Program-made: the position numbers and the translations under genes
Notes under the pieces: model-generated
Database searches by the model: none
The model's input: only the letters and a program-made list of their open reading frames with translations
What the model was told of the DNA's origin: nothing
In this document: positions 15,821 through 63,710 of the stretch, piece by piece
Layout of the letters: each line of letters starts with the position of its first letter
How positions within the stretch are numbered: the first letter of the stretch is position 1
Assembly (NCBI GenBank): GCA_964641245.1
Contig: CAZXML010000004.1
Location: forward strand, 5,418-69,417
Length of the DNA stretch: 64,000 nucleotides
DNA from: an uncultured Gammaproteobacteria bacterium
Lineage (GTDB): Bacteria; Patescibacteriota; Patescibacteriia; Magasanikbacterales; GWA2-37-8
Reading direction: 5' to 3'

Positions 15821-15899
15821 ATAGGGGCTAAAGCCCATATATTCTCATTAACTCGAAAATATTTTAGCAAGCTAAATATTTTACTCATTCATTTCGAAT
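15821..15899 (+). promoter_or_regulatory. Repeated ~80-bp leader module ending ...CAAGCTAAATATTTTACTCATTCATTTCGAAT-ATG
   Basis: Near-identical module at 26116-26192. The 3' portion also occurs at 46020-46066 and 53989-54020, each ending at a start codon. It contains a TAAATAT -10-like box and no Shine-Dalgarno sequence. Confidence 0.5.
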
Positions 15900-17159
15900 A
15901 TGGATATGTCGCCTATAAAACTTAGAGCAAAAAAATACGCGGGAGTTTATTTATCGGTAATACTTTTTATCGTATCTTTTGGCATGGGCATGATGGTGGA
16001 AAAAACATGGAATGTAAAAAAACAAAATGCTAATGATAACGAAGCTCTGCGGTTGGAGAAGCTTATGGCTTCTAACCGTGAAACCAACCATTCAGATTTG
16101 GACTTCTCGCAGTTTTGGGATGTTTGGGACAAGGTAAAGTCCAAGTATGTAAAAGAACCTGCAAAAGACAAGGAAATGTTTTATGGAGCAATTCAAGGCA
16201 TGGTGGCTTCTTTAGGAGATCCATATTCACTGTATTTTCCTCCCGCCGCCGCCGATGAGTTTGCTAAGGATTTATCTGGGGAATTGGAAGGTATCGGCGC
16301 CGAGATAGGCGTAAAAAATAATCAATTGCTTGTAGTTTCACCGCTACCGAATTCTCCAGCCGAAAAAGCAGGATTAAGGCCCGGAGATAGGATTTTGGAT
16401 ATTGATAACACGAGCACATTTGGCATGGATGTTAGTACGGCTGTCAGTAAAATCAGAGGTCCGGCCAATACAAAAGTAGTGCTTACCATCACCAGAGACG
16501 GTTTAACCAAGGCTATGGAAGTGACTATTACCAGATTAAAAATAAACGTTCCCTCGATATTATTTTCGATAAAACCCGGCAATATTGCCTATCTAAGAAT
16601 AATGCAATTTAACGGCGATACTACCGATCAGCTTAATAAATATATAAAACAAATTCAAACCAGGGGCAGTAAAGGTATTGTTTTGGATATGAGAAACAAC
16701 CCCGGAGGTTATTTGAGCGCGGCTATAGATATGGCCAGCGAGTGGGTAACCAGCGGTGCGGTGGTAAGTGAAAAAGGCAGGGACGGTCAAGGTAATGATC
16801 ACCTTACTCAAGGCACCCACCGTTTGTCAGGAATCAAAACCATAGCATTGGTAAATAAGGGTTCGGCTTCGGCGTCAGAAATTGTGGCCGGCGCTTTGCA
16901 GGATACCAAACATGTGATTTTAATCGGCGAGCAAACTTACGGCAAAGGTTCAGTGCAGGATTTTGAAACTTTTCCTGATGGTTCGGCGCTCAAGTTAACC
17001 GTAGCCGAATGGTTCACGCCGAACGGAAAAAATATAAATAAAGAGGGGATTAAGCCCGATATAGAAATAAAACAAGACTGGGAGAAAGAAAAAATAGGTG
17101 AAGATGTTGTTTTAAGCAAAGCTTTGGAATTAATGGCTTCAAGCACTTTCAAATGGTAA
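15900..17159 (+). CDS. ctpA: S41 family C-terminal processing peptidase with PDZ domain
   Basis: N-terminal transmembrane helix, a PDZ region (GDRILDIDN) and catalytic-region GSASASEIVAGAL...KGSVQ. Confidence 0.8.
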   Translation: MDMSPIKLRAKKYAGVYLSVILFIVSFGMGMMVEKTWNVKKQNANDNEALRLEKLMASNRETNHSDLDFSQFWDVWDKVKSKYVKEPAKDKEMFYGAIQGMVASLGDPYSLYFPPAAADEFAKDLSGELEGIGAEIGVKNNQLLVVSPLPNSPAEKAGLRPGDRILDIDNTSTFGMDVSTAVSKIRGPANTKVVLTITRDGLTKAMEVTITRLKINVPSILFSIKPGNIAYLRIMQFNGDTTDQLNKYIKQIQTRGSKGIVLDMRNNPGGYLSAAIDMASEWVTSGAVVSEKGRDGQGNDHLTQGTHRLSGIKTIALVNKGSASASEIVAGALQDTKHVILIGEQTYGKGSVQDFETFPDGSALKLTVAEWFTPNGKNINKEGIKPDIEIKQDWEKEKIGEDVVLSKALELMASSTFKW

Positions 17160-26117: not shown

Positions 26118-26192
26118 GGGCTAAAGCCCATATAATCTCATTCGCTCGGAAATAAATTTGTAAACAATTTATTTCTCTCACTTATTTCGATT
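26116..26192 (+). promoter_or_regulatory. Second copy of the ~80-bp leader module (CTATAGGGGCTAAAGCCCATATAATCTCATTCGCTCGGAAATAAA...TTATTTCGATT-ATG)
   Basis: Homologous to 15821-15899. Its internal hairpin GGAAATAAATTTGTAAACAATTTATTTC relates it to family C. Confidence 0.5.
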
Positions 26193-27278
26193 ATGAAAAT
26201 CGCCCACATAGTTTCAACTTTCTCGCCGCATATCGGTGGTATGGGGGCTGTTTGTTATAATGAAGCAAAACGATTATCAGAGATTGGGCACGACGTGACA
26301 GTCTTTACATTAAAATATCCGGGTAACGTATACGACGATACAAAATTTCCTTTTAAAGTTGTTCGCTTAAAGCCCTTGGTGAGGCTGGGGGACGCAGGGC
26401 TTGTGCCACAAGTATTAAAATATCTGAAGGGTTTTGATTTGGTTCATTTGCATTACCCGTTTTACGGGGGAGCGGAATGGCTTTGTTTTTCTGATATCCC
26501 ATTAGTTATTACCTACCATATGGACGCGCAGGCGAGGGGTCTTAAATTTATTATTCAAAAAATCTACGATTTAGTTTGGCCAAAATTTTTATTTGCCAAA
26601 GCCAAAAAAATCATTGCGGTTGATTCCGAGCATTTTAAAAATACCAAATTTGGAAAATTATATTCCGGCAAGGTTGTTGAAATAAAAAATGGGGTGGATA
26701 CTAACGTTTTTAATTCACATCCGGTTGATTTGGAAAAACTGGGGCTGGATAATTTAAAAAATAAAAAAATTATTCTTTTTGTCGGTAATTTAATGCCATT
26801 AAAACGTCTGGACCTTTTATTGAATGCATTGAAATTGTTGGCAGACGACAATTTGGCTTTGGTGATAGTCGGTGGAGGTTATGAATTGGAAAAATACAAG
26901 CAAAAGGCGAAAAATTTAAGCAATGTATTCATTGCCGGCCAGTGCAACGACCCGCAAAAACTTTCCGATTATTATAACATAGCTACGTGTGTGGTGGTGC
27001 CGTCGGATTACGAATCTTTTTCGTTGGTGGCCATAGAAGCCATGGCTTGTGGCAAGCCATTAGTGCTTAGCGATTTGCCTGTGCTAAAGAATAATTTCGG
27101 TGGATCAATTTTCTTTGAGAAAGGGTCGGTGGAGAGTCTGAAGGGCGCGTTAAAACAAGTCTTGTCATTGTCGGACGAAGAAAGGAAAAAAAATGGCGAG
27201 CTGGAAATAGAAAAAGCCGTTGGAGAGTATTCTTGGGACAAACATATGGTAAAGTTAACGCAAGTATATGACATTTGA
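26193..27278 (+). CDS. Family 4 (GT-B) glycosyltransferase
   Basis: C-terminal ESFSLVAIEAMACGKPLVLSD motif. N-terminal LVHLHYPFYGG. Confidence 0.8.
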   Translation: MKIAHIVSTFSPHIGGMGAVCYNEAKRLSEIGHDVTVFTLKYPGNVYDDTKFPFKVVRLKPLVRLGDAGLVPQVLKYLKGFDLVHLHYPFYGGAEWLCFSDIPLVITYHMDAQARGLKFIIQKIYDLVWPKFLFAKAKKIIAVDSEHFKNTKFGKLYSGKVVEIKNGVDTNVFNSHPVDLEKLGLDNLKNKKIILFVGNLMPLKRLDLLLNALKLLADDNLALVIVGGGYELEKYKQKAKNLSNVFIAGQCNDPQKLSDYYNIATCVVVPSDYESFSLVAIEAMACGKPLVLSDLPVLKNNFGGSIFFEKGSVESLKGALKQVLSLSDEERKKNGELEIEKAVGEYSWDKHMVKLTQVYDI

Positions 27279-36908: not shown

Positions 36909-37571
36909 ATGAATTTCGGCTTCTTTTTAATCATGATGTTTGTGGTTTTGGTGATTGCTGTCGTAGCTGTGATGAATATGAGAAAGCCCGCCTCAAAAAA
37001 AGGCGACGCAAACAATGTGGATCAATGGCTTTTCATTGAATATGCGCCCACAAAAATGAGCGGATTGGAAATCAGAGGATTTACGGCTGCGTCTTCGGTG
37101 CAAGATGAATTGCTGGTGGCGGGACGTGAGTTGCTGAAAAAACTGCCACCCGATATCGGTGCCGATCTGAAGTCTCCGGTTTCCGGTAATCTGGCGACGT
37201 TGTTTTCGCAAAGTTCCAACCCAAACAATCTTGCGCCTGATGAAGTTGTGGCTGCCGTCGCGGTGGCAGAAGCCTCGCTGGCTCTTTGGGCATTGATGTC
37301 GCGGTTTGATTGCAGAGTGAAGCCTCCTCATCCGCATCCGGTAATTTTTGATGAGAGCGCCGGCAACTTTATTGTCAGTCAAAAGTCATATAGCGTTTGC
37401 TATGTTATTGGGCGAATCAGCTTCAGCGCCGGCGTAAGCCTGGCCATGGCCACTTTCATGTGGGAAGGTATCGCGCAAATACTGAAGGAAGGCAAAGTGC
37501 CCATTCCCGGTTTGAAGGTAAATAAGGATATTCTAATCGTTTCCAAAGTCGATGTAACTGAAAAAAAGTAA
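36909..37571 (+). CDS. Hypothetical membrane-anchored protein (GC-elevated)
   Basis: N-terminal transmembrane helix. Compositionally distinct from its neighbours. Confidence 0.4.
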   Translation: MNFGFFLIMMFVVLVIAVVAVMNMRKPASKKGDANNVDQWLFIEYAPTKMSGLEIRGFTAASSVQDELLVAGRELLKKLPPDIGADLKSPVSGNLATLFSQSSNPNNLAPDEVVAAVAVAEASLALWALMSRFDCRVKPPHPHPVIFDESAGNFIVSQKSYSVCYVIGRISFSAGVSLAMATFMWEGIAQILKEGKVPIPGLKVNKDILIVSKVDVTEKK

Positions 37572-44908: not shown

Positions 44909-45067
44909 CGAAACGATGATTAAGAAATAAAAAGATGATTAGGAAATTAACGACAATGATTGGGAAATTAATTTCTTAATCATTTTTTTATTTCCTAATT
45001 ATTGTTGTTGGTAAGTTTGACATAAACCCCATACCAGTTTAAGCTAAATACTAGGAGGATAGTCGTC

Positions 45068-45904
45068 ATGAAAAATCGTGGTTTGGCAATGTTTTTTGTT
45101 GTCGCAGTTATTGGGCTGTGCGCAACCCAAGCTTCTGCCAAAAAGGCGAAGAAACATCGCGCTAGGAAGCCTGCCGGTTCGTGCGGTTTGTATCTTGATT
45201 GGAGATACCTGACCGGCAATTTCAGCAGCGAAAGCAGTAGCGATGAGTTTTATCGGCAGGGCTGGGGTTTTGGAGCAAAATGCAGCTACAATAACTACAG
45301 CAGACTAACTTTTGGGGTTGGCGCAGAAATCTACTCCGGAAGCCTTCAGCTCAATCACGCGAATGAATCCCTTGAAGGTTCTGTGTCGTATGTTGAGCTT
45401 GGTTTTAAGGAGTGGGTACGGGCGGTCTACGACTTTAACCATGTAAAAGTCGGCGCATTGGCCGGTATACAAAATGTCAACGGCGGTAGGTTCAAGATAA
45501 ATAGGATGCAAGTGGATTTTAGCGACAGGTGGTTTGACATTACCAAACTTGCTTCCGAGCACTTGACCAGCGTTGGCAGATTGGGAATCCTGGAAGCAGG
45601 ACTGGATGTGGAGTTCCCGCTTCCAAAAAGGCTTTCCATTACCTTTGGCGTGTTGTGGCAGAGGTACAACGTTTTCATGAGCATAAAAATTGACGATGAG
45701 GGTAAAGACATTCTTAATGCTCTGAATTATGACGTTGCGAATGTGGAAAGAGAACTGAAGAGTTCGCCAAACTTCTTCTATCTCAACCCTGGAGTGAAGT
45801 GGTGTGGCAAGCATTTTTGCTCATCACTGGTTGTTCCTTGGGGAGTATTTCAAGAGAAAAAATGGTCATGGGGACTCGCTCTCGGGACCGAGGTAAGATT
45901 TTAA
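45068..45904 (+). CDS. Secreted protein with outer-membrane beta-barrel-like features
   Basis: Signal peptide. Alternating hydrophobic strands. C-terminal ...GTEVRF ends in Phe, as in OMP beta-barrel signatures. Strong AGGAGG Shine-Dalgarno sequence 9 nt upstream and higher GC than the flanks. Confidence 0.4.
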   Translation: MKNRGLAMFFVVAVIGLCATQASAKKAKKHRARKPAGSCGLYLDWRYLTGNFSSESSSDEFYRQGWGFGAKCSYNNYSRLTFGVGAEIYSGSLQLNHANESLEGSVSYVELGFKEWVRAVYDFNHVKVGALAGIQNVNGGRFKINRMQVDFSDRWFDITKLASEHLTSVGRLGILEAGLDVEFPLPKRLSITFGVLWQRYNVFMSIKIDDEGKDILNALNYDVANVERELKSSPNFFYLNPGVKWCGKHFCSSLVVPWGVFQEKKWSWGLALGTEVRF

Positions 45905-46019
45905 TTTTGGAATGGAAATTCTAATTTTCAAAAGCACATCAGCATGAACCGTACTTGACTTGACAAGACGGTTCTTTTTTATTTTATATGTGTTATAATA
46001 TTTTTGAAATTTCATTGGA

Positions 46020-46066
46020 AATTTCAAAAAATATTTCACTGTTTATTTCACTCACTCATTTCGAAT
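46020..46066 (+). promoter_or_regulatory. Partial copy of conserved leader motif (...TTTCACTCACTCATTTCGAAT-ATG)
   Basis: Shares its 3' ~25 nt with the leaders at 15868-15899, 26170-26192 and 53989-54020. Confidence 0.45.
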
Positions 46067-46615
46067 ATGGACCTAACTTTAATCCTCGGGCCGATGAAAA
46101 GCGGAAAATCTTTTGACTTAATAAGTTATTTTGCGCCGTTAAAATTCACCGATATCCCGCACATACTTTATCAGTCTAAACGCAATGTCCGCGACGAACA
46201 TATTTCTTCCCGCAACGGAGTAGTAATAGAAGCCAAAAAAGTTAGCGCCTTAAGCGAAGCTTTAGAAAACAATTTTACTATTGTCGGCATAGACGAACTG
46301 CATATGTTTGATCCCAAAGATGTGGCGGTCGTGGCCGAGTTATTAAAAAGGGGAGTAAAAGTGGTAGCCGCCGGACTGGATTTGGATTATCGGGGAAAAA
46401 TGTTTGATGTGGTAAAAGGACTTTTAGAGCTTGGTCCCAAAGAAGTTCGTTATAAAAGGGCTGTTTGCGAACTCTGCCGTCAACCCTCCGCTGTTTATTC
46501 CCAAGTATTTAGCAAAGGACTTCCTCTTACCGAAGGCATGCCCCCGGTAATTCCGGACGATGGCACCTTCACTTACCAGCCTGTCTGCCGCAATTGTTTT
46601 GTCACCGCCTCGTAG
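46067..46615 (+). CDS. tdk: Thymidine kinase
   Basis: MDLTLILGPMKSGKS P-loop start and a C-terminal zinc ribbon (CELC...CRNC). The track ORF start at 46004 is upstream of the conserved N-terminus. Confidence 0.85.
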   Translation: MDLTLILGPMKSGKSFDLISYFAPLKFTDIPHILYQSKRNVRDEHISSRNGVVIEAKKVSALSEALENNFTIVGIDELHMFDPKDVAVVAELLKRGVKVVAAGLDLDYRGKMFDVVKGLLELGPKEVRYKRAVCELCRQPSAVYSQVFSKGLPLTEGMPPVIPDDGTFTYQPVCRNCFVTAS

Positions 46616-46759: not shown

Positions 46760-49021
46760 ATGGTTTTAGGAGGAAAAATTGCGAAGTTAATATTGTTAAT
46801 AGTAGCAACACTTTTTTTGGTGAAGCCGGTTTTTGCGTCCACCACCGACGGCACTATCAGTACAGGAAACGCCTGGAGCGCAAAAATTGGCTGGATAAAT
46901 TTTGCCGCCGCCAACGGCAACGCGCATGTCACAGATTCACAATTAACCGGTTATGTTTGGAACAGTCTTTATGGCTGGATTAAATTAAACCCCGCCAACA
47001 GCGGAGTTACAAATAACTCCGAAGGCGCCTTGTCGGGAAGCGCCTGGGGAGAAAATATCGGCTGGATAGATTTTTCCGGAGTAACTATTCTTGCCAGCGG
47101 AGTTTTTTCCGGCGCGGCCAGCGGCGACAATACCGGGTCTGTAAATTTTAGCTGCGCAAATTGTTTGGTGCAAACCGATTGGCGTCCGGCCAGTTCGCGA
47201 GTCGTCCCTGTCGGCGGCGCCACTCTGCCTCCCGCCGCCGGTTCTCCGCCAGTGGCGCCTTATTTAATTATTTTAAATAACGGCGCGCCGCAAACCAACT
47301 CAAGTACCATAATTATTACTCTGCGCGGAAGCGCGGACACCTCTTATGCCTGGGTGGCGGAGGATTCTTTGTTTACCAATAATCCTACGCGGGTAGATTT
47401 TAGTCCCGCAGTCATGGAAGTAAACATTCCGTTTGTTTTAAGTTCCGGCGAAGGTCAAAAAACTATCTACGCGAAATTTTGCAATCAGTGGGGGACATGC
47501 AGCGGTTTAATTTCCAATTCCATTTTATATACAGTTGTAATCGCTCCGCCGCCACCGGTAATTTCCCCAATTTCTCCAATTTCCTTACCATCCACAACCG
47601 TCGGCCAAATCATAGACCAGGTCAAAGGCGTAGTCGGGCAAATTTTATCCAGAATATTTCCGGTTAAAGTAATAACGGCTCCGCTTGCAAAATTATATTC
47701 CGAAGCCAAGCTTTGGTTCCCGTACTGGTTTAAAGCGCCGCCGGTGGAACAAATTCCGATTGAGCGTTTTGTATCCAAGAAAACCCCTTTTGCTTTTAGA
47801 GGCAAATGGAATTACCTTGACCCCAAGCCAATCAATAGATTCGTATTCGCTCCTTTGCCAAAAGAATTTTTGGCTTTAACCAACAAATTTCCGCAGTTAA
47901 AAAATATTTTACAGCAGGTTGGTATTGATCGTCTAAGCGATATAGAAAAATTAAAATCCGTCCAAATGTATTTGCCCAGTTTAACGCGCGCCATTACTTT
48001 TAGCGCGCCAAAAATAATCCCCGGTCAAATTGACGGGCAAACAACCACGCTTCCTTCAGGCCAAATATTAGCCGGCCAATTTGCCGAAGAAAAAGCCATT
48101 CCTATCGGCGATTTAACTCCGAATCTTAAAGATAAAATACCAACCGACGTAGTGTTCGCGCGCGCGTCCGGCCAGCTGGTAGATTTCAAAATAGCCTTGT
48201 CATTAACTGCCAAAAACCGGCCCGAGCAAAAAATTTCTACCATCTCCGGAAAGACTCTGTCGCTTACCGTTAGGCCGGAATTCCCGGCTAAACGCGTCCG
48301 CGGTTTTTTGGTGTTTAGATCAAAATCACCGCAGGCCAGAGCGGAAATGCCGCTGGCTAATTTAATAAATTCATTAATTTTTGCCCAACCGGCCTTTGCC
48401 TACACCCAAGAACAGCCGGTAGAAGTAGAAGAAAAGCTGGTTTTGTTGGAATTTGAATATACCGATCCGGATGGCGATGGTATTTATAACGCCGAAATTC
48501 AAGCGCCAATCCCGACCGGAGAATACGAAATTATTACGGTTATAGATTATGTGGATCCGGAAATGGGAATAAAACAAATCCGATTAATTACCGTGATTGA
48601 TCCGGAAGGTTATGTCTTTGAAAAAGTAGGTGATAAAGAATTGCGCATCCCCGGAGCCGTTGCTACTCTTTATCATTTTAATCCGGAAACAAAAGCCTAC
48701 GAAGTCTGGCCGGCCAAAGATTTCCAGCAAGACAACCCGCAAGTTACCGGCTTAAGCGGCAGTTATTCATTCCTGGTACCGGGCGGAACCTACTCTATAA
48801 AAATAGAGGCTCCCGGTTATCTTACCTACGAAGGCAAGCCGTTTATAGTAGAAGAGGGAAGCGGTGTTCATGCCAACATAGAATTAAAAGCCCAGTATTG
48901 GTGGTTAAAAGTCCTAGATTGGAAAACCGCGCTCCTAATTTTGGTGGCCATGTTATTGTTATGGAATTTTTATAAAGACAGGCGGAGGGAGAAAGCTGAA
49001 ATTAAGAAATTGGGAAATTAG
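46760..49021 (+). CDS. Large type-I membrane-anchored surface protein with GW-containing N-terminal repeats
   Basis: Signal peptide. Repeats GWINF/GWIKL/GWIDF. Pro-rich linker. Ig-like or carboxypeptidase-regulatory-like C-terminal region. C-terminal transmembrane helix plus a basic tail. Confidence 0.5.
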   Translation: MVLGGKIAKLILLIVATLFLVKPVFASTTDGTISTGNAWSAKIGWINFAAANGNAHVTDSQLTGYVWNSLYGWIKLNPANSGVTNNSEGALSGSAWGENIGWIDFSGVTILASGVFSGAASGDNTGSVNFSCANCLVQTDWRPASSRVVPVGGATLPPAAGSPPVAPYLIILNNGAPQTNSSTIIITLRGSADTSYAWVAEDSLFTNNPTRVDFSPAVMEVNIPFVLSSGEGQKTIYAKFCNQWGTCSGLISNSILYTVVIAPPPPVISPISPISLPSTTVGQIIDQVKGVVGQILSRIFPVKVITAPLAKLYSEAKLWFPYWFKAPPVEQIPIERFVSKKTPFAFRGKWNYLDPKPINRFVFAPLPKEFLALTNKFPQLKNILQQVGIDRLSDIEKLKSVQMYLPSLTRAITFSAPKIIPGQIDGQTTTLPSGQILAGQFAEEKAIPIGDLTPNLKDKIPTDVVFARASGQLVDFKIALSLTAKNRPEQKISTISGKTLSLTVRPEFPAKRVRGFLVFRSKSPQARAEMPLANLINSLIFAQPAFAYTQEQPVEVEEKLVLLEFEYTDPDGDGIYNAEIQAPIPTGEYEIITVIDYVDPEMGIKQIRLITVIDPEGYVFEKVGDKELRIPGAVATLYHFNPETKAYEVWPAKDFQQDNPQVTGLSGSYSFLVPGGTYSIKIEAPGYLTYEGKPFIVEEGSGVHANIELKAQYWWLKVLDWKTALLILVAMLLLWNFYKDRRREKAEIKKLGN

Positions 49022-49873: not shown

Positions 49874-49962
49874 ATTTGATATTAATACACAGCTACTGGG
49901 GATAAGTCTGTTTGACTAAAGAAAAAACATGAAATTTGTGGTATAATAATGGAGACAGTTAT

Positions 49963-52900
49963 ATGCTAACCTTAGGAAAAAGAAAACTTTTTAAAATTTT
50001 AGAAATATCCTCTATTTTTGTCGGTGTCATCATGGCGCTTTATTATTTTTATCCGGTTTTTGCCGCTCCTCCTACTACTCCATACGCGCCCGGCGAAACC
50101 ACCGATCCCGCTTGTACTCCCGGCAGTACTAATTGTACAGTTTACCCGCCTCTCACCACCACCCTCACCACTTCCACGGCCATTACTATGGCCACATCTG
50201 CTTTACGGTTTGCTTACGACTCTACAAATTATACCGCCCTCACAGTGGCCGCAGATGGCGCGCTCACGGTCAGTTCCACCGGCGGTGTCACCACTACTTT
50301 TGCCAATAAAATTTCGGTTTTAGCCAATTCATATTTCTCCACTATTTCCAGTGGCACCTGGAATGGTAGTGTTATTGGCGTTGCTTATGGCGGCACCAAC
50401 AGTTCCACCATTGGCCCAGCCGGCTCTGTCGCATATTCTAACGCCAGCAGTTACTTGTTTACCGCCGCCGGTACAGCCGGACAAATTTTGCAGGCCAATG
50501 GCACCGGCGCTCCTACTTGGATAAATACCAGCACCATGGGATTTGTTAATCTGCAGGGCGTTACGTCCGGTACGCAACAAACTGGAAATTTTAATATTAG
50601 CGGCACTGGCCTTATCGGCGCCGCTCTGGGCATCAACACCACTAGCCCCATCGCAAGTTTATCAGTGCAAGGAACGGGAACAAAAAACCCTTTCACTATC
50701 GTTTCTTCAACCAATGGGTCAATGTTGACTGTTTTGACGAACGGGAATGTTGGGATTGGCACTTCCACCCCTTCTGAAAAACTTCAGGTGGTGGGAAATA
50801 TTTCGAATGTGATTGATTCTAACACCACTTTTTCATCTTCCATCGCCACTGTAGGCACAAGTCCTTATGATATCTTTGTTTCCGGCCGCTACGCCTACGT
50901 GACAAATTATGGCGGAGGTACCCTTTCAATCGTAGATGTAACCGACCCTTTAAGACCTTCAGAAATCTCAACTGTTAGTGTAGGCACAAGCCCTTATTCG
51001 GTTTATGTCTCCGGTCACTATGCTTATACAGCAAATTATAACGCTGGTACTATTTCCGTCGTTGATGTTTCTAATCACGCTGTTCCTAAAATAGCTGCTA
51101 CTTTTAGTATATCTAAACCTGCGGGAATTTATGTCTCCGGTCGCTATGCTTATGTGACTAATTTTGATTCCAGTACCATTTCAGTTGTAGATGTATCCAA
51201 CCCCCTTAGCCTTGCTTTTGTTGCGAGCACTACCGCAGGAACGAACCCTCTTCAGATTTATGTGCAAGGAAATTATGCGTATGTGGCTAATAGGGGTAGC
51301 AGTTACATCTCAATAATAGATATTTCTAATCCTTCTGCCCCTCGCAACGTTGCCAATCCGGTTGTGGGTATATCCCCTCACGATATACACGTTTCTGGCC
51401 GTTATGCTTATGTTTCAGTATTGGAAAATGATAATTTTGCAGTTGTAGATATTTCTAATCCAAACGTTCCTGTGGTGGTAACTAGCACCCCTGCAAGCAG
51501 TGGACTGGGCGGTTATGCTTTGTACGTTTCTGGCCGTTACGCTTATGTGACCAGGAGCGCTTCAAGCACTTTAGCTGTTATAGATATTTCTAATTCATCC
51601 ACCCCCGTTTTAGCCGCCACAATTCCTGTATCCCCAGGCCCTGGCGGTGTTTATGTTTCCGGTCGCTACGCCTATGTGACAAATTATAGCGGCAGCAGTA
51701 TTACCGTCATCGACATCTCCGGCACCGAGGTCACTTCACTCATCGCCCACAGCGCCGAGGTGGGGAATCTGCAATCCCGAAACGACATTTTTGCCGAAGG
51801 AAATATAATGGCCGGCACTTCGCTGTCGGTTGGTGCTGGAGGTATTATGTCCCAAGGCGCATTGTCTGTCTTTGCTTCTTCTACCGATGCCACATCTTCT
51901 ATTTTCAATGTTTCATCCGCCCAGACATCAAATATATTTAATGTTTTTGCGAATGGAAAAATTGGTATTGGTAGTTCCACTCCGTCAACACTATTGGTCG
52001 TAAATGGAACTTCTACGATGAACGGATTACAGATTTTAAATAGGGGTTCAGCGGCTGTTCCTGCTCTGGCTATTGGCACAGCTACAGATGGTATTTATCA
52101 GCGAACCGCTACCACTTTGAACATTACCACCAATGGCGCGATTACAGCCGAATTTTATAACGGTTCAATATCAACAAACGACTTAAAAGTAAGTGCGATA
52201 TACAATGGAAGTACTGCGGGAAGCAGTGGTGGAGGTGTCATTGATTTAACCACAGTAGGATTAACTCTGGGGATTGATGGGAACGCTGCAATTTTGAATA
52301 TTAAAAATAATGTGGTCGGCATAAATACTACCACCATAAACTCCACCCTCACAGTGCAGGGCACGGATAGCATCAATCCATTTTCTATCCTTTCCTCCAC
52401 CACAGCTTCTCTGCTCACCGTTCTCACCAACGGCAATATTGGCGTCAACTCATCTAGTCCTATTGCAACTTTGGCAGTACAAGGAAATTACGGAACAAAT
52501 CCTTTTTCTATAAACTCCTCAACTGGAGCAACTATGTTAAACGTTCAAACTAATGGAACAGTTAATGTGGGAATGGGAGCTCTTTCTATTAGACACAACA
52601 ACGCTGTTACTAACAACGCAGTTTTTACTGCTGGTTCATCTGGTAGTGGGTACTTCAATGTTTGTAATGACGGCTGGTGTACTGGATTTGGAGGTGACGC
52701 GCCTGTTGCAGTCACCACTGGGTTTCAGCTTTATGGCGCGGCTCCCATCATTTTTGAGGGGAGTACTGACAATTCATTTGAAACTCGTTTGAATGTTGTC
52801 GAACCTACAGCCGACCGAACTGTTCTACTTCAAAATTTAAGCGGGACGGTTGTTATCACTGAATTAACTACCAATAATGTCGGCCTCGGCACCACCACCC

Positions 52901-53940
52901 CGCAAGCAAAACTAACTATCCAAAGCACCAGCTCCAATCCTTTTTCCATCGTAACTTCAACTGCAGGGGCCGAATCTATGTTCATTGTTTTGACGAATGG
53001 GAATGTTGGTATCGGAAGTTCCACCCCTTCCTATAACTTTGTTTCTACTGGTACGGCTGCTTTAGCAAATCTCCCCTCCGGCGCTCTTTCTGATATTCTT
53101 GTTTGCTGGACTACAGACGGACAATTAACCAGGCAAGCCACCAACTGCACTGTTTCATCTGCTCGTTTCAAAGAAAATATCCAATCTCTATCATCGGATA
53201 AACTAATGGAAAAAGTTCAAAAACTAAGAGTGGTTAGTTTTGATTACAAGTCTAATGGACAACCGAGCGAGGGTTTTATCGCCGAAGAAATTGCCCTAAT
53301 AGACCCAATGCTGGTTGTTTATACCGATAGTTACACTCCGGAAGATCTGGCTTTTGAACAGGCTAATTATCCAAGTTCAACCTTATATAAAGACGGTAAA
53401 ATATTAATTCCGCAAACAGTTGATTATTCCCGAATCTCGGTTCTTCTTACCGGCGCATTGCAAGATATAGATGCCAGATTGACCGCTTATGTTGCTTCAG
53501 CAGAGTTAATGTCTTCGGTATTCAGTATTGATGTAGCGGATATTAGCAACGACATGCCAAACTTTGCCACTGTAATTTTGGACAAATTTACTTTGGCTGT
53601 AAAAAATAGCTTAAGAAAATTGGGCCTGCTGATAAAAGATGGCGTGGCCATGGTAAAAGAATTGGTGGCGGATAAAGTGAAGACTAACCAGTTGTGCGTC
53701 GGCCAGACTTGTATAAACGAACAGCAATTGCAAGATATTTTGAGTAAAACTCAAACTCAAGCCACTCCGGTACCTGTCATCCCGAGCGAGGTCGTAGCCG
53801 ACGAGGGATTTTTGTCCACCACAACACAGGATTCTAACGTACCTGACACAACTCCAGCAACTGTCTCTGAAGAAACTCTAAGCTCTACGCTTCCAACCGT
53901 TCCCGATGAATCAGCTGATATAGTCACTTCAACTCCATAG
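49963..53940 (+). CDS. Giant surface protein: LVIVD-repeat beta-propeller, phage-tail-fibre-like G(N)(V/I)GIG(T/S)S(T/S)P repeats, C-terminal S74-type intramolecular chaperone domain
   Basis: TATAAT box at 49942, GGAGA Shine-Dalgarno sequence, then ATG at 49963. About eight SGRYAYVTNY...ISVVDVSNP units. Five LTVLTNGNVGIGTSTPS-like units. C-terminal SSARFKENIQSLSSDKLMEKVQKLRVVSFDYK matches the endosialidase-chaperone consensus. Confidence 0.6.
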   Translation: MLTLGKRKLFKILEISSIFVGVIMALYYFYPVFAAPPTTPYAPGETTDPACTPGSTNCTVYPPLTTTLTTSTAITMATSALRFAYDSTNYTALTVAADGALTVSSTGGVTTTFANKISVLANSYFSTISSGTWNGSVIGVAYGGTNSSTIGPAGSVAYSNASSYLFTAAGTAGQILQANGTGAPTWINTSTMGFVNLQGVTSGTQQTGNFNISGTGLIGAALGINTTSPIASLSVQGTGTKNPFTIVSSTNGSMLTVLTNGNVGIGTSTPSEKLQVVGNISNVIDSNTTFSSSIATVGTSPYDIFVSGRYAYVTNYGGGTLSIVDVTDPLRPSEISTVSVGTSPYSVYVSGHYAYTANYNAGTISVVDVSNHAVPKIAATFSISKPAGIYVSGRYAYVTNFDSSTISVVDVSNPLSLAFVASTTAGTNPLQIYVQGNYAYVANRGSSYISIIDISNPSAPRNVANPVVGISPHDIHVSGRYAYVSVLENDNFAVVDISNPNVPVVVTSTPASSGLGGYALYVSGRYAYVTRSASSTLAVIDISNSSTPVLAATIPVSPGPGGVYVSGRYAYVTNYSGSSITVIDISGTEVTSLIAHSAEVGNLQSRNDIFAEGNIMAGTSLSVGAGGIMSQGALSVFASSTDATSSIFNVSSAQTSNIFNVFANGKIGIGSSTPSTLLVVNGTSTMNGLQILNRGSAAVPALAIGTATDGIYQRTATTLNITTNGAITAEFYNGSISTNDLKVSAIYNGSTAGSSGGGVIDLTTVGLTLGIDGNAAILNIKNNVVGINTTTINSTLTVQGTDSINPFSILSSTTASLLTVLTNGNIGVNSSSPIATLAVQGNYGTNPFSINSSTGATMLNVQTNGTVNVGMGALSIRHNNAVTNNAVFTAGSSGSGYFNVCNDGWCTGFGGDAPVAVTTGFQLYGAAPIIFEGSTDNSFETRLNVVEPTADRTVLLQNLSGTVVITELTTNNVGLGTTTPQAKLTIQSTSSNPFSIVTSTAGAESMFIVLTNGNVGIGSSTPSYNFVSTGTAALANLPSGALSDILVCWTTDGQLTRQATNCTVSSARFKENIQSLSSDKLMEKVQKLRVVSFDYKSNGQPSEGFIAEEIALIDPMLVVYTDSYTPEDLAFEQANYPSSTLYKDGKILIPQTVDYSRISVLLTGALQDIDARLTAYVASAELMSSVFSIDVADISNDMPNFATVILDKFTLAVKNSLRKLGLLIKDGVAMVKELVADKVKTNQLCVGQTCINEQQLQDILSKTQTQATPVPVIPSEVVADEGFLSTTTQDSNVPDTTPATVSEETLSSTLPTVPDESADIVTSTP

Positions 53941-53988: not shown

Positions 53989-54020
53989 CAAGCTAAATAT
54001 TTTATTCACTCATTTCGATT
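53989..54020 (+). promoter_or_regulatory. Conserved leader motif CAAGCTAAATATTTTATTCACTCATTTCGATT-ATG
   Basis: About 90% identical to 15868-15899 upstream of ctpA. Confidence 0.5.
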
Positions 54021-54386
54021 ATGGAAAAAGAGAAAGAGCCAACCATACAAGATGTCCTTGACGCCATGCATGCTTTTGCGGGCAATACGCAAGAGAGATT
54101 TGAGAAAATAGACGAGAGATTTGAGAATATAGATGAAAGATTTGATAAAATAGACGAGAGATTTGATAATCTGGAAAAAAATCTGCGTTTAGAAATCGGC
54201 AAAGCAAGAGATGAGGCGTTCGTGCATGCAGACAGAAAATCGGAAGAAGTAATTGTGGAGGTGGGTAAAATAATAAATAGACGCGCCGAACATGAAAATA
54301 AATTTAAGCATGAATTAGTTTCCGTCATGAAACGTAATTCTTTGTTAGGCGCCAAAGAGCTGAAACATCTGGAGCGGGCGATCTAA
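54021..54386 (+). CDS. Hypothetical coiled-coil protein with tandem ERFxxID heptad repeats
   Basis: Four 21-bp DNA repeats at 54097-54180 encode ERFEKIDERFENIDERFDKIDERFDNL. Confidence 0.45.
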   Translation: MEKEKEPTIQDVLDAMHAFAGNTQERFEKIDERFENIDERFDKIDERFDNLEKNLRLEIGKARDEAFVHADRKSEEVIVEVGKIINRRAEHENKFKHELVSVMKRNSLLGAKELKHLERAI

Positions 54387-62722: not shown

Positions 62723-62756
62723 ATTCGGAAAGATTTGTAGATGGCATTTTTTTAAA

Positions 62757-63440
62757 AATTAAAAAGGCCCCGGCGAATGCGGGGCCTGTAGGCGGGGCGG
62801 GCGGGAAAGAGCGGGGGTGTGGCGGGGTGAGCTGTGACTTACTGGCCGCAGCCCGGGTGGACGACGTGGATGGTCTGCGTCACCGAGAACAGCAGATTCG
62901 CGGTGGCGTTGTTGCCCTTGACCGTACCGGTGAGAGTCACCGTATGGTCGCCGGCGCCGAGATCGGCTCCGACGGGATCCATCAGCGCGGCAGCGAGAGC
63001 GGAACCGTCCGCGCCGCCGTTGTCGTTGCCGGCGAACCAATCCGTGTTGAGGATCGTCCGCGCGTCGCCATCCGTGAGCAACGAGGTGTTTCCGTTCGAA
63101 CCGGCATTGGTCGTGTAGGCGAAGTCGATCGGGTAGACGACGGTTGAAGTAGCCGGAATGGCAACTGTGCCGTCGACTGACACCGCCAAATTCACCACGC
63201 GGCTCACCATGACCGGAAGTCCGGTCGTAGGATCGGTGCCGGGCTCCTCGAGCGAGAACGAGTACTTCCTCGGCCAGTTGGCCTTGCTCACAGCGGACTC
63301 GCCGGCGATGAGCGCCGAAATGTCCACATGAGCCGTCTCGCCGTCGCTGGTTTCACTCACCATCTCCCAGGCCGTGAATGGCCCGACAGTGGCAGTGTCC
63401 GGGTTCGGCGCGACTGCGTAGGTGTTCTGTCAAGGCTTGG
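62757..63440. other. Compositionally foreign GC-rich island (about 65% GC by eye)
   Basis: Abrupt shift from AT-rich flanks. Bounded on the left by hairpin GGCCCCG GCGAATG CGGGGCC (62767-62790), with an A-run on the plus strand acting as a minus-strand terminator. Confidence 0.6.
62839..63363 (-). CDS. Hypothetical Gly/Thr/Ala-rich protein encoded in the GC-rich island (possibly a fragment)
   Basis: 174-aa minus-strand ORF with high-GC codon usage (third positions mostly G/C). Overlapping ORFs in other frames are typical high-GC artefacts. Confidence 0.3.
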   Translation of the reverse strand: MVSETSDGETAHVDISALIAGESAVSKANWPRKYSFSLEEPGTDPTTGLPVMVSRVVNLAVSVDGTVAIPATSTVVYPIDFAYTTNAGSNGNTSLLTDGDARTILNTDWFAGNDNGGADGSALAAALMDPVGADLGAGDHTVTLTGTVKGNNATANLLFSVTQTIHVVHPGCGQ

Positions 63441-63710
63441 CCTGTATAAAAACACATTGCAAAAAGCTTTGTTTAGTGATATAGTTAAATTTACAGTCGA
63501 ACTCATTTCGCTTATATGAGCTTCGTCTCATATATTTTCATTCATTCGTCCCGACTTAGTTGGGATATAATCTATTTATCGTATGGCAAAAAGACCCACA
63601 GGCTACATAAAAAGAACAAAGTCAAAGCATTCTCCAAAAACAAAAAAGCGTTTGGAAGTAAAAAGACAAATGCTTGCCAAAAAAGCTTCTAAAAAAAGAC
63701 GTTAGTAAGC

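Follow-up and report, generated by a model that had tools for sequence, protein, structure and literature searches.

A predicted outer-membrane-type β-barrel, probably native to a narrow clade of the candidate phyla radiation

We analyzed a stretch of 64,000 nucleotides (contig CAZXML010000004.1 of assembly GCA_964641245.1; hereafter the window), whose host lineage belongs to the candidate phyla radiation (CPR); it is Parcubacteria- or Magasanikbacteria-like. Core genes in the window include dnaK, dnaJ, grpE and hrcA, yidC, secA, mraZ and rsmH, a murA-like gene, CTP synthase, era, L9 and recJ, and these are accompanied by genes for glycosyltransferases, a PEGA-domain protein and giant surface proteins. 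The window also holds a gene for a protein of 278 amino acids that carries a Sec signal peptide and is predicted to fold into a β-barrel of the outer-membrane protein (OMP) type; we refer to it as the barrel gene. A first-pass annotation had placed this open reading frame (ORF) at 45018-45904 and had read it as acquired from a diderm donor. The 278-residue ORF is real, but its start lies at 45068 in the ORF list. An indexed search found a protein identical to its product already on record (P0001). The gene, its signals and the parts of its product lie at the following window positions:

45017 to 45022, forward strand: −35 hexamer TTGACA, within the block TTGACAtAAA, which is invariant in an alignment of five loci
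45040 to 45045, forward strand: −10-like hexamer TAAGCT, 17 nt after the −35 hexamer, with TAnnnT conserved
45053 to 45058, forward strand: Shine-Dalgarno (SD) sequence AGGAGG, 9 nt before the ATG at 45068, with a computed duplex energy of −10.2 kcal/mol
45068 to 45904, forward strand: coding sequence of the barrel protein, 278 amino acids, stop codon included (ORF list and homologue alignments)
45068 to 45139, forward strand: predicted Sec signal peptide, residues 1-24, MKNRGLAMFFVVAVIGLCATQASA; signal peptidase I is expected to cut behind ASA
45140 to 45181, forward strand: short, basic low-complexity linker, residues 25-38, KKAKKHRARKPAGS
45182 to 45901, forward strand: predicted β-barrel domain, residues 39-278, with the C-terminal β-signal GTEVRF (structural model, Foldseek and parity analysis)
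45946 to 45985, forward strand: putative intrinsic terminator, a hairpin at 45946-45974 (GAACCGU...ACGGUUC) followed by a U-run at 45975-45985, with a fold z-score of −3.5

The arrangement of these elements suggests that the barrel gene is a self-contained, conserved transcription unit of its own. We accepted the promoter and the terminator on their conservation across loci and not from scan tools. The block TTGACAtAAA, the 17-nt spacer, TAnnnT and a G-rich SD sequence keep their positions in the five aligned loci, and the same holds for three further loci (L016, L019 and L021). Within the −10 region, T43, A44 and T48 are invariant in the five-locus alignment at the fixed 17-nt spacing. Because TAAGCT matches only three of the six −10 consensus positions, a consensus promoter scan did not list this promoter; TTGACATAAA occurs once only in the window, at the site of the −35 hexamer. 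The predicted transcript start falls approximately at the SD sequence, which would leave a leader of about 15 nt. On the 3′ side, a hairpin and U-run follow the stop codon in all five loci folded, and the stems of two of them (L004 and L006) vary from that of the window by compensatory changes. We attribute the failure of the terminator scan to detect the hairpin to its interrupted stem, which contains an unpaired base.

The SD sequence sets the barrel gene apart from its surroundings. Anti-SD duplex energies were computed upstream of the 62 window ORFs of at least 100 amino acids, and that of the barrel gene was the strongest (rank 1 of 62), whereas the mean of −1.4 kcal/mol was weaker than that of random 20-mers (−2.2 kcal/mol). 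Orthologues carry AGGAGG or AGGGGG(G) at a conserved position, and at each of five loci the barrel gene ranks first among its neighbors, at −9.3 to −11.8 kcal/mol where the means lie between −1.4 and −2.4 kcal/mol; L019 and L021 likewise reach −10.2 kcal/mol. The first-pass annotation had described TTGACA followed by AGGAGG-N9-ATG and a strong SD sequence in an SD-poor genome, and both descriptions hold for the window, with TTGACA beginning one base to the left of the 45018 that it gave as the start. Only two or three other window ORFs, such as those at 36909 and 28123, have an SD-like purine run; adh_short, the gene immediately upstream of the barrel gene in related loci, has AAGGAG as well. 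Since promoter and SD sequence are conserved in orthologues, we read them as native, selected signals and not as leftovers from a donor, and the combination of promoter, strong SD sequence and terminator in a unit of its own points to strong or specially controlled expression.

The signal peptide of the barrel protein consists of an n-region with K and R (MKNRG), a hydrophobic core (Kyte-Doolittle maximum of 2.95) and an AxA motif, with ASA followed by KK. Sec signal peptides were found in 20 of 22 family members, the remaining two being N-terminally truncated. AlphaFold2 modeled this region as a helix (residues 4-22) at a low predicted local distance difference test (pLDDT) score, and residues 16-32 fell below a pLDDT of 50. 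The linker is rich in K, E and P in relatives, where it spans 10-45 amino acids and is gap-rich and variable in the family alignment. Beyond it, the mature part is almost wholly predicted as β-strand with strict period-2 hydrophobicity, and the C-terminus GTEVRF fits the OMP β-signal G-x-x-hydrophobic-x-F; a terminal aromatic residue (F or W) is present in 19 of the 22 members. The signal peptide, the amphipathic strands, whose alternation runs along essentially all of them, and the C-terminal EVRF ending in Phe had all been recognized in the first-pass annotation. A lipoprotein reading was rejected, as IGLC is not a lipobox and its cysteine is not conserved. An antisense ORF of 169 amino acids within the gene (45305-45814, reverse strand) was treated as a shadow ORF because relatives and the gene calls of the public contigs all support the forward-strand protein.

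Only G69, C72, D209 and P241 are invariant throughout the family, and H97 and H165 are conserved in the close subgroup only. Four cysteines are invariant within that subgroup and pair by position as C39-C72 and C246-C251, both at the rim that bears the termini. The pair C246/C251 is confined to the subgroup of the window type, and other subgroups retain the first pair only. A related genome has a DsbD/thioredoxin/VKOR cluster nearby, so that disulfide formation outside the cytoplasm is plausible.

To characterize the fold, we modeled the window protein with AlphaFold2 from a 10-sequence alignment, which gave a mean pLDDT of 81.5, a predicted template modeling score (pTM) of 0.69 and strands of 18-22 residues. 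A second model, of the most distant relative (P0032, 22 % identical), reached a pLDDT of 75.5 and a pTM of 0.65 and matched the same structures; three of the five models of this relative scored below a pLDDT of 50. These two best models, obtained independently, agree with each other. Foldseek searches of the PDB returned, among the matches listed for both, outer-membrane barrels only, with a probability of 1.0. The best matches were omptins (Pla, OmpT and pOmpT), with template modeling (TM) scores of 0.51-0.56, root-mean-square deviations (RMSD) of 4.9-7.7 Å and E values down to 7e-11, followed by autotransporter, FapF and OmpW barrels; in a viral-structure library, OMP-type barrels also came out on top. 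The prediction thus yields a barrel and not a soluble non-barrel fold, in line with the OMP-like character assigned in the first-pass annotation.

Sequence searches painted a different picture. Pfam gave nothing above threshold and NCBIfam no match for the barrel family, a profile search of PDB sequences returned nothing at E values up to 10, and when the family profile was compared by hhalign with E. coli OmpT and MipA (both from NC_000913), the probabilities were 0.2 % and 0.15 %, respectively. Below threshold, OMP_b-brl (E 0.0024) and Autotransporter (E 0.0077) each appeared in 2 of the 22 members and MipA (E 0.27) in one; these weak matches point the same way, to an OMP-type barrel. The models therefore describe what would be an orphan sequence family with a known fold, the Gram-negative outer-membrane β-barrel, in an unexpected lineage, and the predicted fold is closest to the tall, 10-stranded omptin architecture.

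The membrane belt and strand topology were derived from sequence parity on the 22-member alignment and not from coordinates. Ten putative membrane strands emerge (residues 39-47, 62-74, 80-88, 109-123, 126-134, 175-185, 189-197, approximately 236-246, 250-258 and 266-278), all of which adjoin the termini and the short turns (75-79, 124-125, 186-188 and 247-249). On the face assigned as outward, 47 of 50 belt residues are hydrophobic or aromatic, and the 41 residues assigned to the inward face are Gly or charged, with several invariant Gly. By sequence parity, the protein would have the dyad-repeat belt, the aromatic girdles and the polar, Gly-rich lumen of its class. Approximately half-way along the long strands the hydrophobic face flips parity (I88/Y89, Y108/V109, I174/L175 and L196/W197), which would be explained by a lower belt with hydrophobic residues pointing out and an upper extension with hydrophobic residues pointing in. 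An extra hairpin (143-157), together with short helices (159-165 and 210-218), would seal that extension. We favor 10 strands because segment 228-235 shows no hydrophobic face; an 11-strand topology, as counted by DSSP, was rejected on this ground and because the belts of strands 7 and 8 adjoin the turn 186-188. A closed barrel in which all neighboring strands are antiparallel is predicted, with 10 strands from parity and 11 elements from DSSP. Together, model and parity suggest a single-chain closed barrel whose outer half has a hydrophobic interior, and the secreted pore-former that had been raised as a possible function is for this reason not favored.

We found few relatives of the barrel protein. 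A word-indexed search of 5.8 billion clusters gave 10 proteins, an exhaustive phmmer scan of 1.84 billion representatives gave 18, and two profile searches gave 12 and 3. A scan of 185,579 GTDB species genomes with the closer alignment yielded a single locus, in the metagenome-assembled genome (MAG) Gr01-1014_13, and a JGI metagenome scan yielded one further locus, on a Hainich groundwater contig. In total, approximately 20 relatives were found, and named source records are the Parcubacteria group MAG Gr01-1014_13 (a 495-kb contig) and a Candidatus Magasanikbacteria MAG. No relative from outside the clade was found in the exhaustive scan or in three indexed searches. Eight genomic contexts could be recovered (the window contig, L004, L006/L007, L009, L011, L019/L020, L021 and the short L016), and all eight share the order SWIB, DEAD helicase, barrel, thymidine kinase, SecA and SecDF. 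The fuller order is (ABC transporter, GST,) SWIB, DEAD helicase, one or two variable genes, barrel, thymidine kinase, a small ORF and then SecA, beyond which follow DUF1653, SecD, SecF and DUF8128. Neither the window nor any related locus recovered holds a paralogue of the barrel gene. At this locus at least three subtypes occur, namely the window type, that of L019/L021 and that of L009/L011, which are 22-30 % identical to one another; P0030, P0032, P0033 and P0022 are the members named in the subtype alignments, and P0032 has a 22-residue, Cys-containing insertion modeled at low confidence. A few kb downstream of the barrel gene, SecD in this clade contains an inserted parvulin-type peptidyl-prolyl isomerase (Rotamase) domain (16325-18079 in L004, 16382-18136 in L006, 16572-18335 in L009 and 15019-16779 in L019), and has the appearance of a translocon subunit fused to a folding catalyst.

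One of these loci, L019 (GCA_035473115.1, contig DATION010000002.1, 234 kb), is labeled 'Candidatus Udaeobacter sp.' (Verrucomicrobiota). It has the synteny of the clade, and its DEAD helicase, thymidine kinase and SecA are 81-85 % identical to those of the window. We therefore read the label as a mis-assignment, in that the taxonomic label is probably wrong or the bin mixed, and on the same grounds rejected this record as a diderm donor.

The barrel gene is the fastest-evolving shared gene among those compared. Its product is 20-59 % identical between genomes, whereas the DEAD helicase, thymidine kinase and SecA are 74-92 % identical. Given these neighbors, the genomes are close relatives and the barrel gene is simply fast-evolving; a description of the family as 'anciently' inherited (identity down to 22 %) was dropped on the same evidence. 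Where amino-acid identity is 48-59 %, synonymous sites have reached saturation. The differences are distributed across the entire protein, and the alternation pattern is kept. Against the Magasanikbacteria locus L011, the barrel protein is 22 % identical, and two large surface proteins reach 63 % and 42 %. This pair lies downstream of thymidine kinase, at 46760-49021 and 49936-53940 on the forward strand of the window, and is common to the window and L011 but not found in L004, L006 or L009. The first ORF encodes 753 amino acids with a CarboxypepD_reg-like domain and a C-terminal hydrophobic anchor, and the second 1334 amino acids with LVIVD repeats and a Peptidase_S74 domain.

Base composition and codon usage place the barrel gene inside the range of housekeeping genes. 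Its GC content of 0.467 compares with a mean of 0.425 for the window genes (z = 0.88), and its GC content at third codon positions (GC3) of 0.509 with 0.446 (z = 0.78); in length-corrected codon-usage deviation it takes rank 6 of 63, on a par with SecA and RecJ. The first-pass annotation had called the gene richer in GC and in codon usage than its surroundings; GC and GC3 are indeed slightly higher, but only weakly so, and in codon comparison with core genes it does not stand out. A sharply bounded GC-rich island at 62750-63450 (GC 0.61-0.67, with flanks at 0.34-0.43) is a different matter. The ORF within it (62839-63363, reverse strand, 174 amino acids) has a GC3 of 0.81, ranks 1 of 63 in raw codon usage and second after length correction (z = 12), and has only sub-threshold Pfam matches. 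As a candidate for recent foreign DNA, it ranks far ahead of the barrel gene.

No member of the Omp85/POTRA, Lpt, Lpx, TolC, Tol-Pal or OmpA families is on record for the 64-kb window or for approximately 100 kb of related loci, a small fraction of a genome. CPR have been placed in a monoderm clade with Chloroflexi (bioRxiv 10.1101/2021.05.31.446380), and cryogenic transmission electron microscopy of groundwater CPR showed cells with an S-layer and without an outer membrane, attached to hosts that have two lipid layers (bioRxiv 10.1101/2020.05.14.094862); envelope data are lacking for most CPR (review, PMC8871954). The first-pass annotation had taken the host as probably monoderm, and the literature agrees in treating CPR as being without an outer membrane. 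Our literature search found no published report of OMP-type barrels in CPR.

Together, these results favor the reading of the barrel protein as a native, membrane-embedded surface barrel with a closed outer half, probably abundant and serving host or phage contact. We give somewhat better than even credence to a native, single-copy envelope barrel of a narrow CPR clade that acts as a surface anchor or adhesin, a credence that belongs mostly to what the protein is. The precursor would be exported via Sec and cleaved after ASA24, whereupon the disulfides C39-C72 and C246-C251 would form at the termini-bearing rim, as their register and invariance suggest. Approximately 10 residues from each of ten strands would make up the belt, hydrophobic outside and Gly-rich or charged inside, and this belt would be seated in a lipid bilayer outside the cytoplasm. 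The upper strand halves, with reversed polarity, would combine with the extra hairpin and the two short helices into a closed cap projecting from the membrane, and such a cap would make the protein an anchor, adhesin or receptor-type module and not an open pore. Its extreme divergence relative to its neighbors fits a surface protein at a symbiont-host or phage interface. The wider claim, that a CPR lineage deemed single-membraned and devoid of the β-barrel assembly machinery (BAM) makes a genuine OMP-type transmembrane barrel with a β-signal from a conserved, strongly signaled gene, we put forward as tentative and, on balance, doubtful.

Several points weigh against the favored reading. The cytoplasmic membrane is the only one known in CPR, and no machinery for barrel assembly was identified in the window or the related loci. 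The fold is a prediction from 10-12 sequences. DSSP gives 11 strand elements; the ten strands, the belt and the cap come from the parity analysis. Sequence variation is spread evenly and not concentrated in loops, which fits relaxed constraint as well as diversifying selection. The GC3 of the barrel gene is raised mildly but consistently in all five lineages (z 0.8-2.0), and its high expression is deduced from signals only.

Among the alternatives, the one that survives best, although still improbable, casts the barrel protein as a host effector, which the episymbiont would release into the outer membrane of a Gram-negative host, possibly via the BAM of that host, as a docking site or conduit. 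This would explain a β-signal-like C-terminus in a lineage in which BAM is not known, it suits the very fast evolution expected of a host-interaction molecule, and it accords with the attachment of groundwater CPR to two-membrane hosts. There is a precedent in Neisseria PorB, which inserts into host mitochondria. However, the gene is monocistronic, with no linked secretion or delivery system and with variable neighbors past thymidine kinase, and BAM works from the periplasmic side, so that the barrel would need to traverse the outer membrane of the host beforehand. The closed cap suggested by parity also speaks against a conduit.

Slightly less probable still is horizontal acquisition, the origin proposed in the first-pass annotation, by which a cassette of promoter, SD sequence, OMP gene and terminator came from a Gram-negative donor and is now foreign and possibly functionless or repurposed. 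An OMP fold with a C-terminal β-signal is a diderm hallmark, TTGACA and AGGAGG, both canonical signals, are unusual in this genome, and GC and GC3 lie slightly over the local mean in all five lineages. Against this stand the lack of any relative beyond the clade, and of a detectable donor, in exhaustive and indexed searches; the fixed syntenic position at eight loci; the conservation of the expression signals under selection; and a composition that is unremarkable in the window (GC z 0.9, GC3 z 0.8, codon deviation equal to that of SecA and RecJ). The sole diderm-labeled match shows CPR synteny, with neighbors 81-85 % identical. Sequence comparison thus indicates that the gene was not recently imported from a diderm. 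An ancient transfer into the ancestor of the clade is conceivable, and with fast divergence it would have wiped out any similarity to the donor.

We consider it unlikely that this clade is itself diderm-like, with an outer lipid layer and an Omp85-type machine, and that the barrel gene encodes an ordinary major OMP. The full canonical design (signal peptide, belt, short turns at the side of the termini and β-signal), strong-expression signals similar to those of major OMPs, the parvulin domain in SecD of related loci and the scarcity of envelope data for most CPR lineages would all suit such an organism, but the outer-membrane families listed above are not on record in the window and the related loci, small part of the genome though these are, no second barrel or paralogue was seen there, and published surveys and cryo-microscopy treat CPR as lacking an outer membrane. 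Equally unlikely is a protein that does not reside in a membrane, either a secreted or wall-associated soluble β-protein, such as a lipid-binding barrel scavenging host lipids for CPR that are unable to make fatty acids and need external ones, or a non-barrel β fold that AlphaFold forces into a barrel shape: hydrophobic alternation along full strands of 18-22 residues, which is longer than a bilayer needs, shallow alignments, the three low-scoring models of the distant relative and the absence of a sequence match to any curated OMP family speak for it, but two independent best models agree and match outer-membrane barrels only, the Gly- and charge-rich polar face with invariant Gly suggests a narrow barrel lumen and not a solvent-exposed surface, all ten belts adjoin short turns and termini, and the terminal aromatic residue is conserved.

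The reading of a native envelope barrel matters because single-chain barrels of the OMP type count as a hallmark of two-membrane cells, and CPR serve as a monoderm clade in reconstructions of outer-membrane gain or loss. If an OMP-type barrel is indeed made in CPR, some of these bacteria would possess an outer lipid layer that has so far escaped notice, or what is left of one; alternatively, the barrel would fold unassisted into a membrane, or it would be planted in the outer membrane of a Gram-negative host as part of an episymbiotic interface. In each case the barrel protein offers a concrete molecule with which to approach an outer lipid layer in CPR, BAM-free assembly or the docking of episymbionts on Gram-negative hosts. 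Should Omp85 and further outer-membrane components prove to be encoded in the whole genomes, the organism would become the surprising part and the gene would be ordinary. The gene is also a natural case of a strong SD sequence kept in a genome that otherwise does without, and is useful for work on translation initiation in CPR.

Start signals of another kind occur elsewhere in the window. A 21-nt motif, TTTCAYTCAYTCATTTCGAWT, stands directly before the ATG of four unrelated genes (15879-15902, 26172-26195, 46046-46069 and 54000-54023, forward strand), which encode an S41 protease, a GT4 glycosyltransferase, thymidine kinase and a 121-amino-acid ORF; four matches were observed in the window and none was expected by chance. 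The motif may be an SD-independent leader or initiation element. It was not found upstream of thymidine kinase in related genomes. In the window, thymidine kinase is preceded by an extended −10-like element, TGTTATAAT, at 45991-45999 and probably starts at the ATG at 46067 (182 amino acids, per the public contig), not at the TTG at 46004 of the ORF list.

The known proteins closest to the predicted structure are the omptins (E. coli OmpT and Yersinia pestis Pla; Pfam Omptin, MEROPS A26), the best structural matches (TM 0.51-0.56, E to 7e-11). Like them, the barrel protein is predicted to be a tall, narrow, monomeric barrel of approximately 10 long strands and 250-300 amino acids, with no open pore, and its function would likewise lie in the part beyond the membrane. 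The barrel family differs in that it has no profile relation to omptins (hhalign below 1 %), no Pfam Omptin match and an identity of 8-11 %. The catalytic Asp-Asp and Asp-His pairs that omptins keep at their outer rim are not conserved in the barrel family, with its four invariant residues G69, C72, D209 and P241. The barrel family adds putative disulfides, an N-terminal charged linker and a host lineage reported to be without an outer membrane.

OmpX/Ail/Lom, OpcA and OmpW share with the barrel protein a single chain, a signal peptide and a C-terminal aromatic β-signal; they too are fast-evolving surface proteins, whose strands protrude as a binding surface, as those of the barrel protein may do. 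OmpW is among its fold matches (TMt 0.59), and OMP-like barrels lead its matches in the viral library. These small barrels are built from 8 (or 10) shorter strands and fall into curated families, whereas only 2 of the 22 barrel members touch Pfam OMP_b-brl, below threshold (E 0.0024), and an adhesin role for them is a conjecture. With MipA/OmpV, there is no profile-level similarity (hhalign 0.15 %; one member with a Pfam E of 0.27). Autotransporter β-domains (EspP, Hbp, NalP and EstA) rank high among the Foldseek matches (E 5e-10 to 1e-7), but their superpositions onto the barrel model are poor (RMSD 11.5-23 Å, TM 0.36-0.47), and they have 12 strands, a passenger domain and a pore-filling helix, whereas the barrel protein has only some 14-45 low-complexity N-terminal residues. 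To our knowledge, the only well-known membrane β-barrels from monoderms are the β-barrel pore-forming toxins, such as staphylococcal α-haemolysin, none of which was among the top 50 fold matches listed. These toxins are Sec-secreted, as the barrel protein appears to be, but each is a soluble monomer that supplies a single hairpin to an oligomeric barrel, whereas the barrel protein is predicted to form a complete single-chain barrel with an OMP-type C-terminus.

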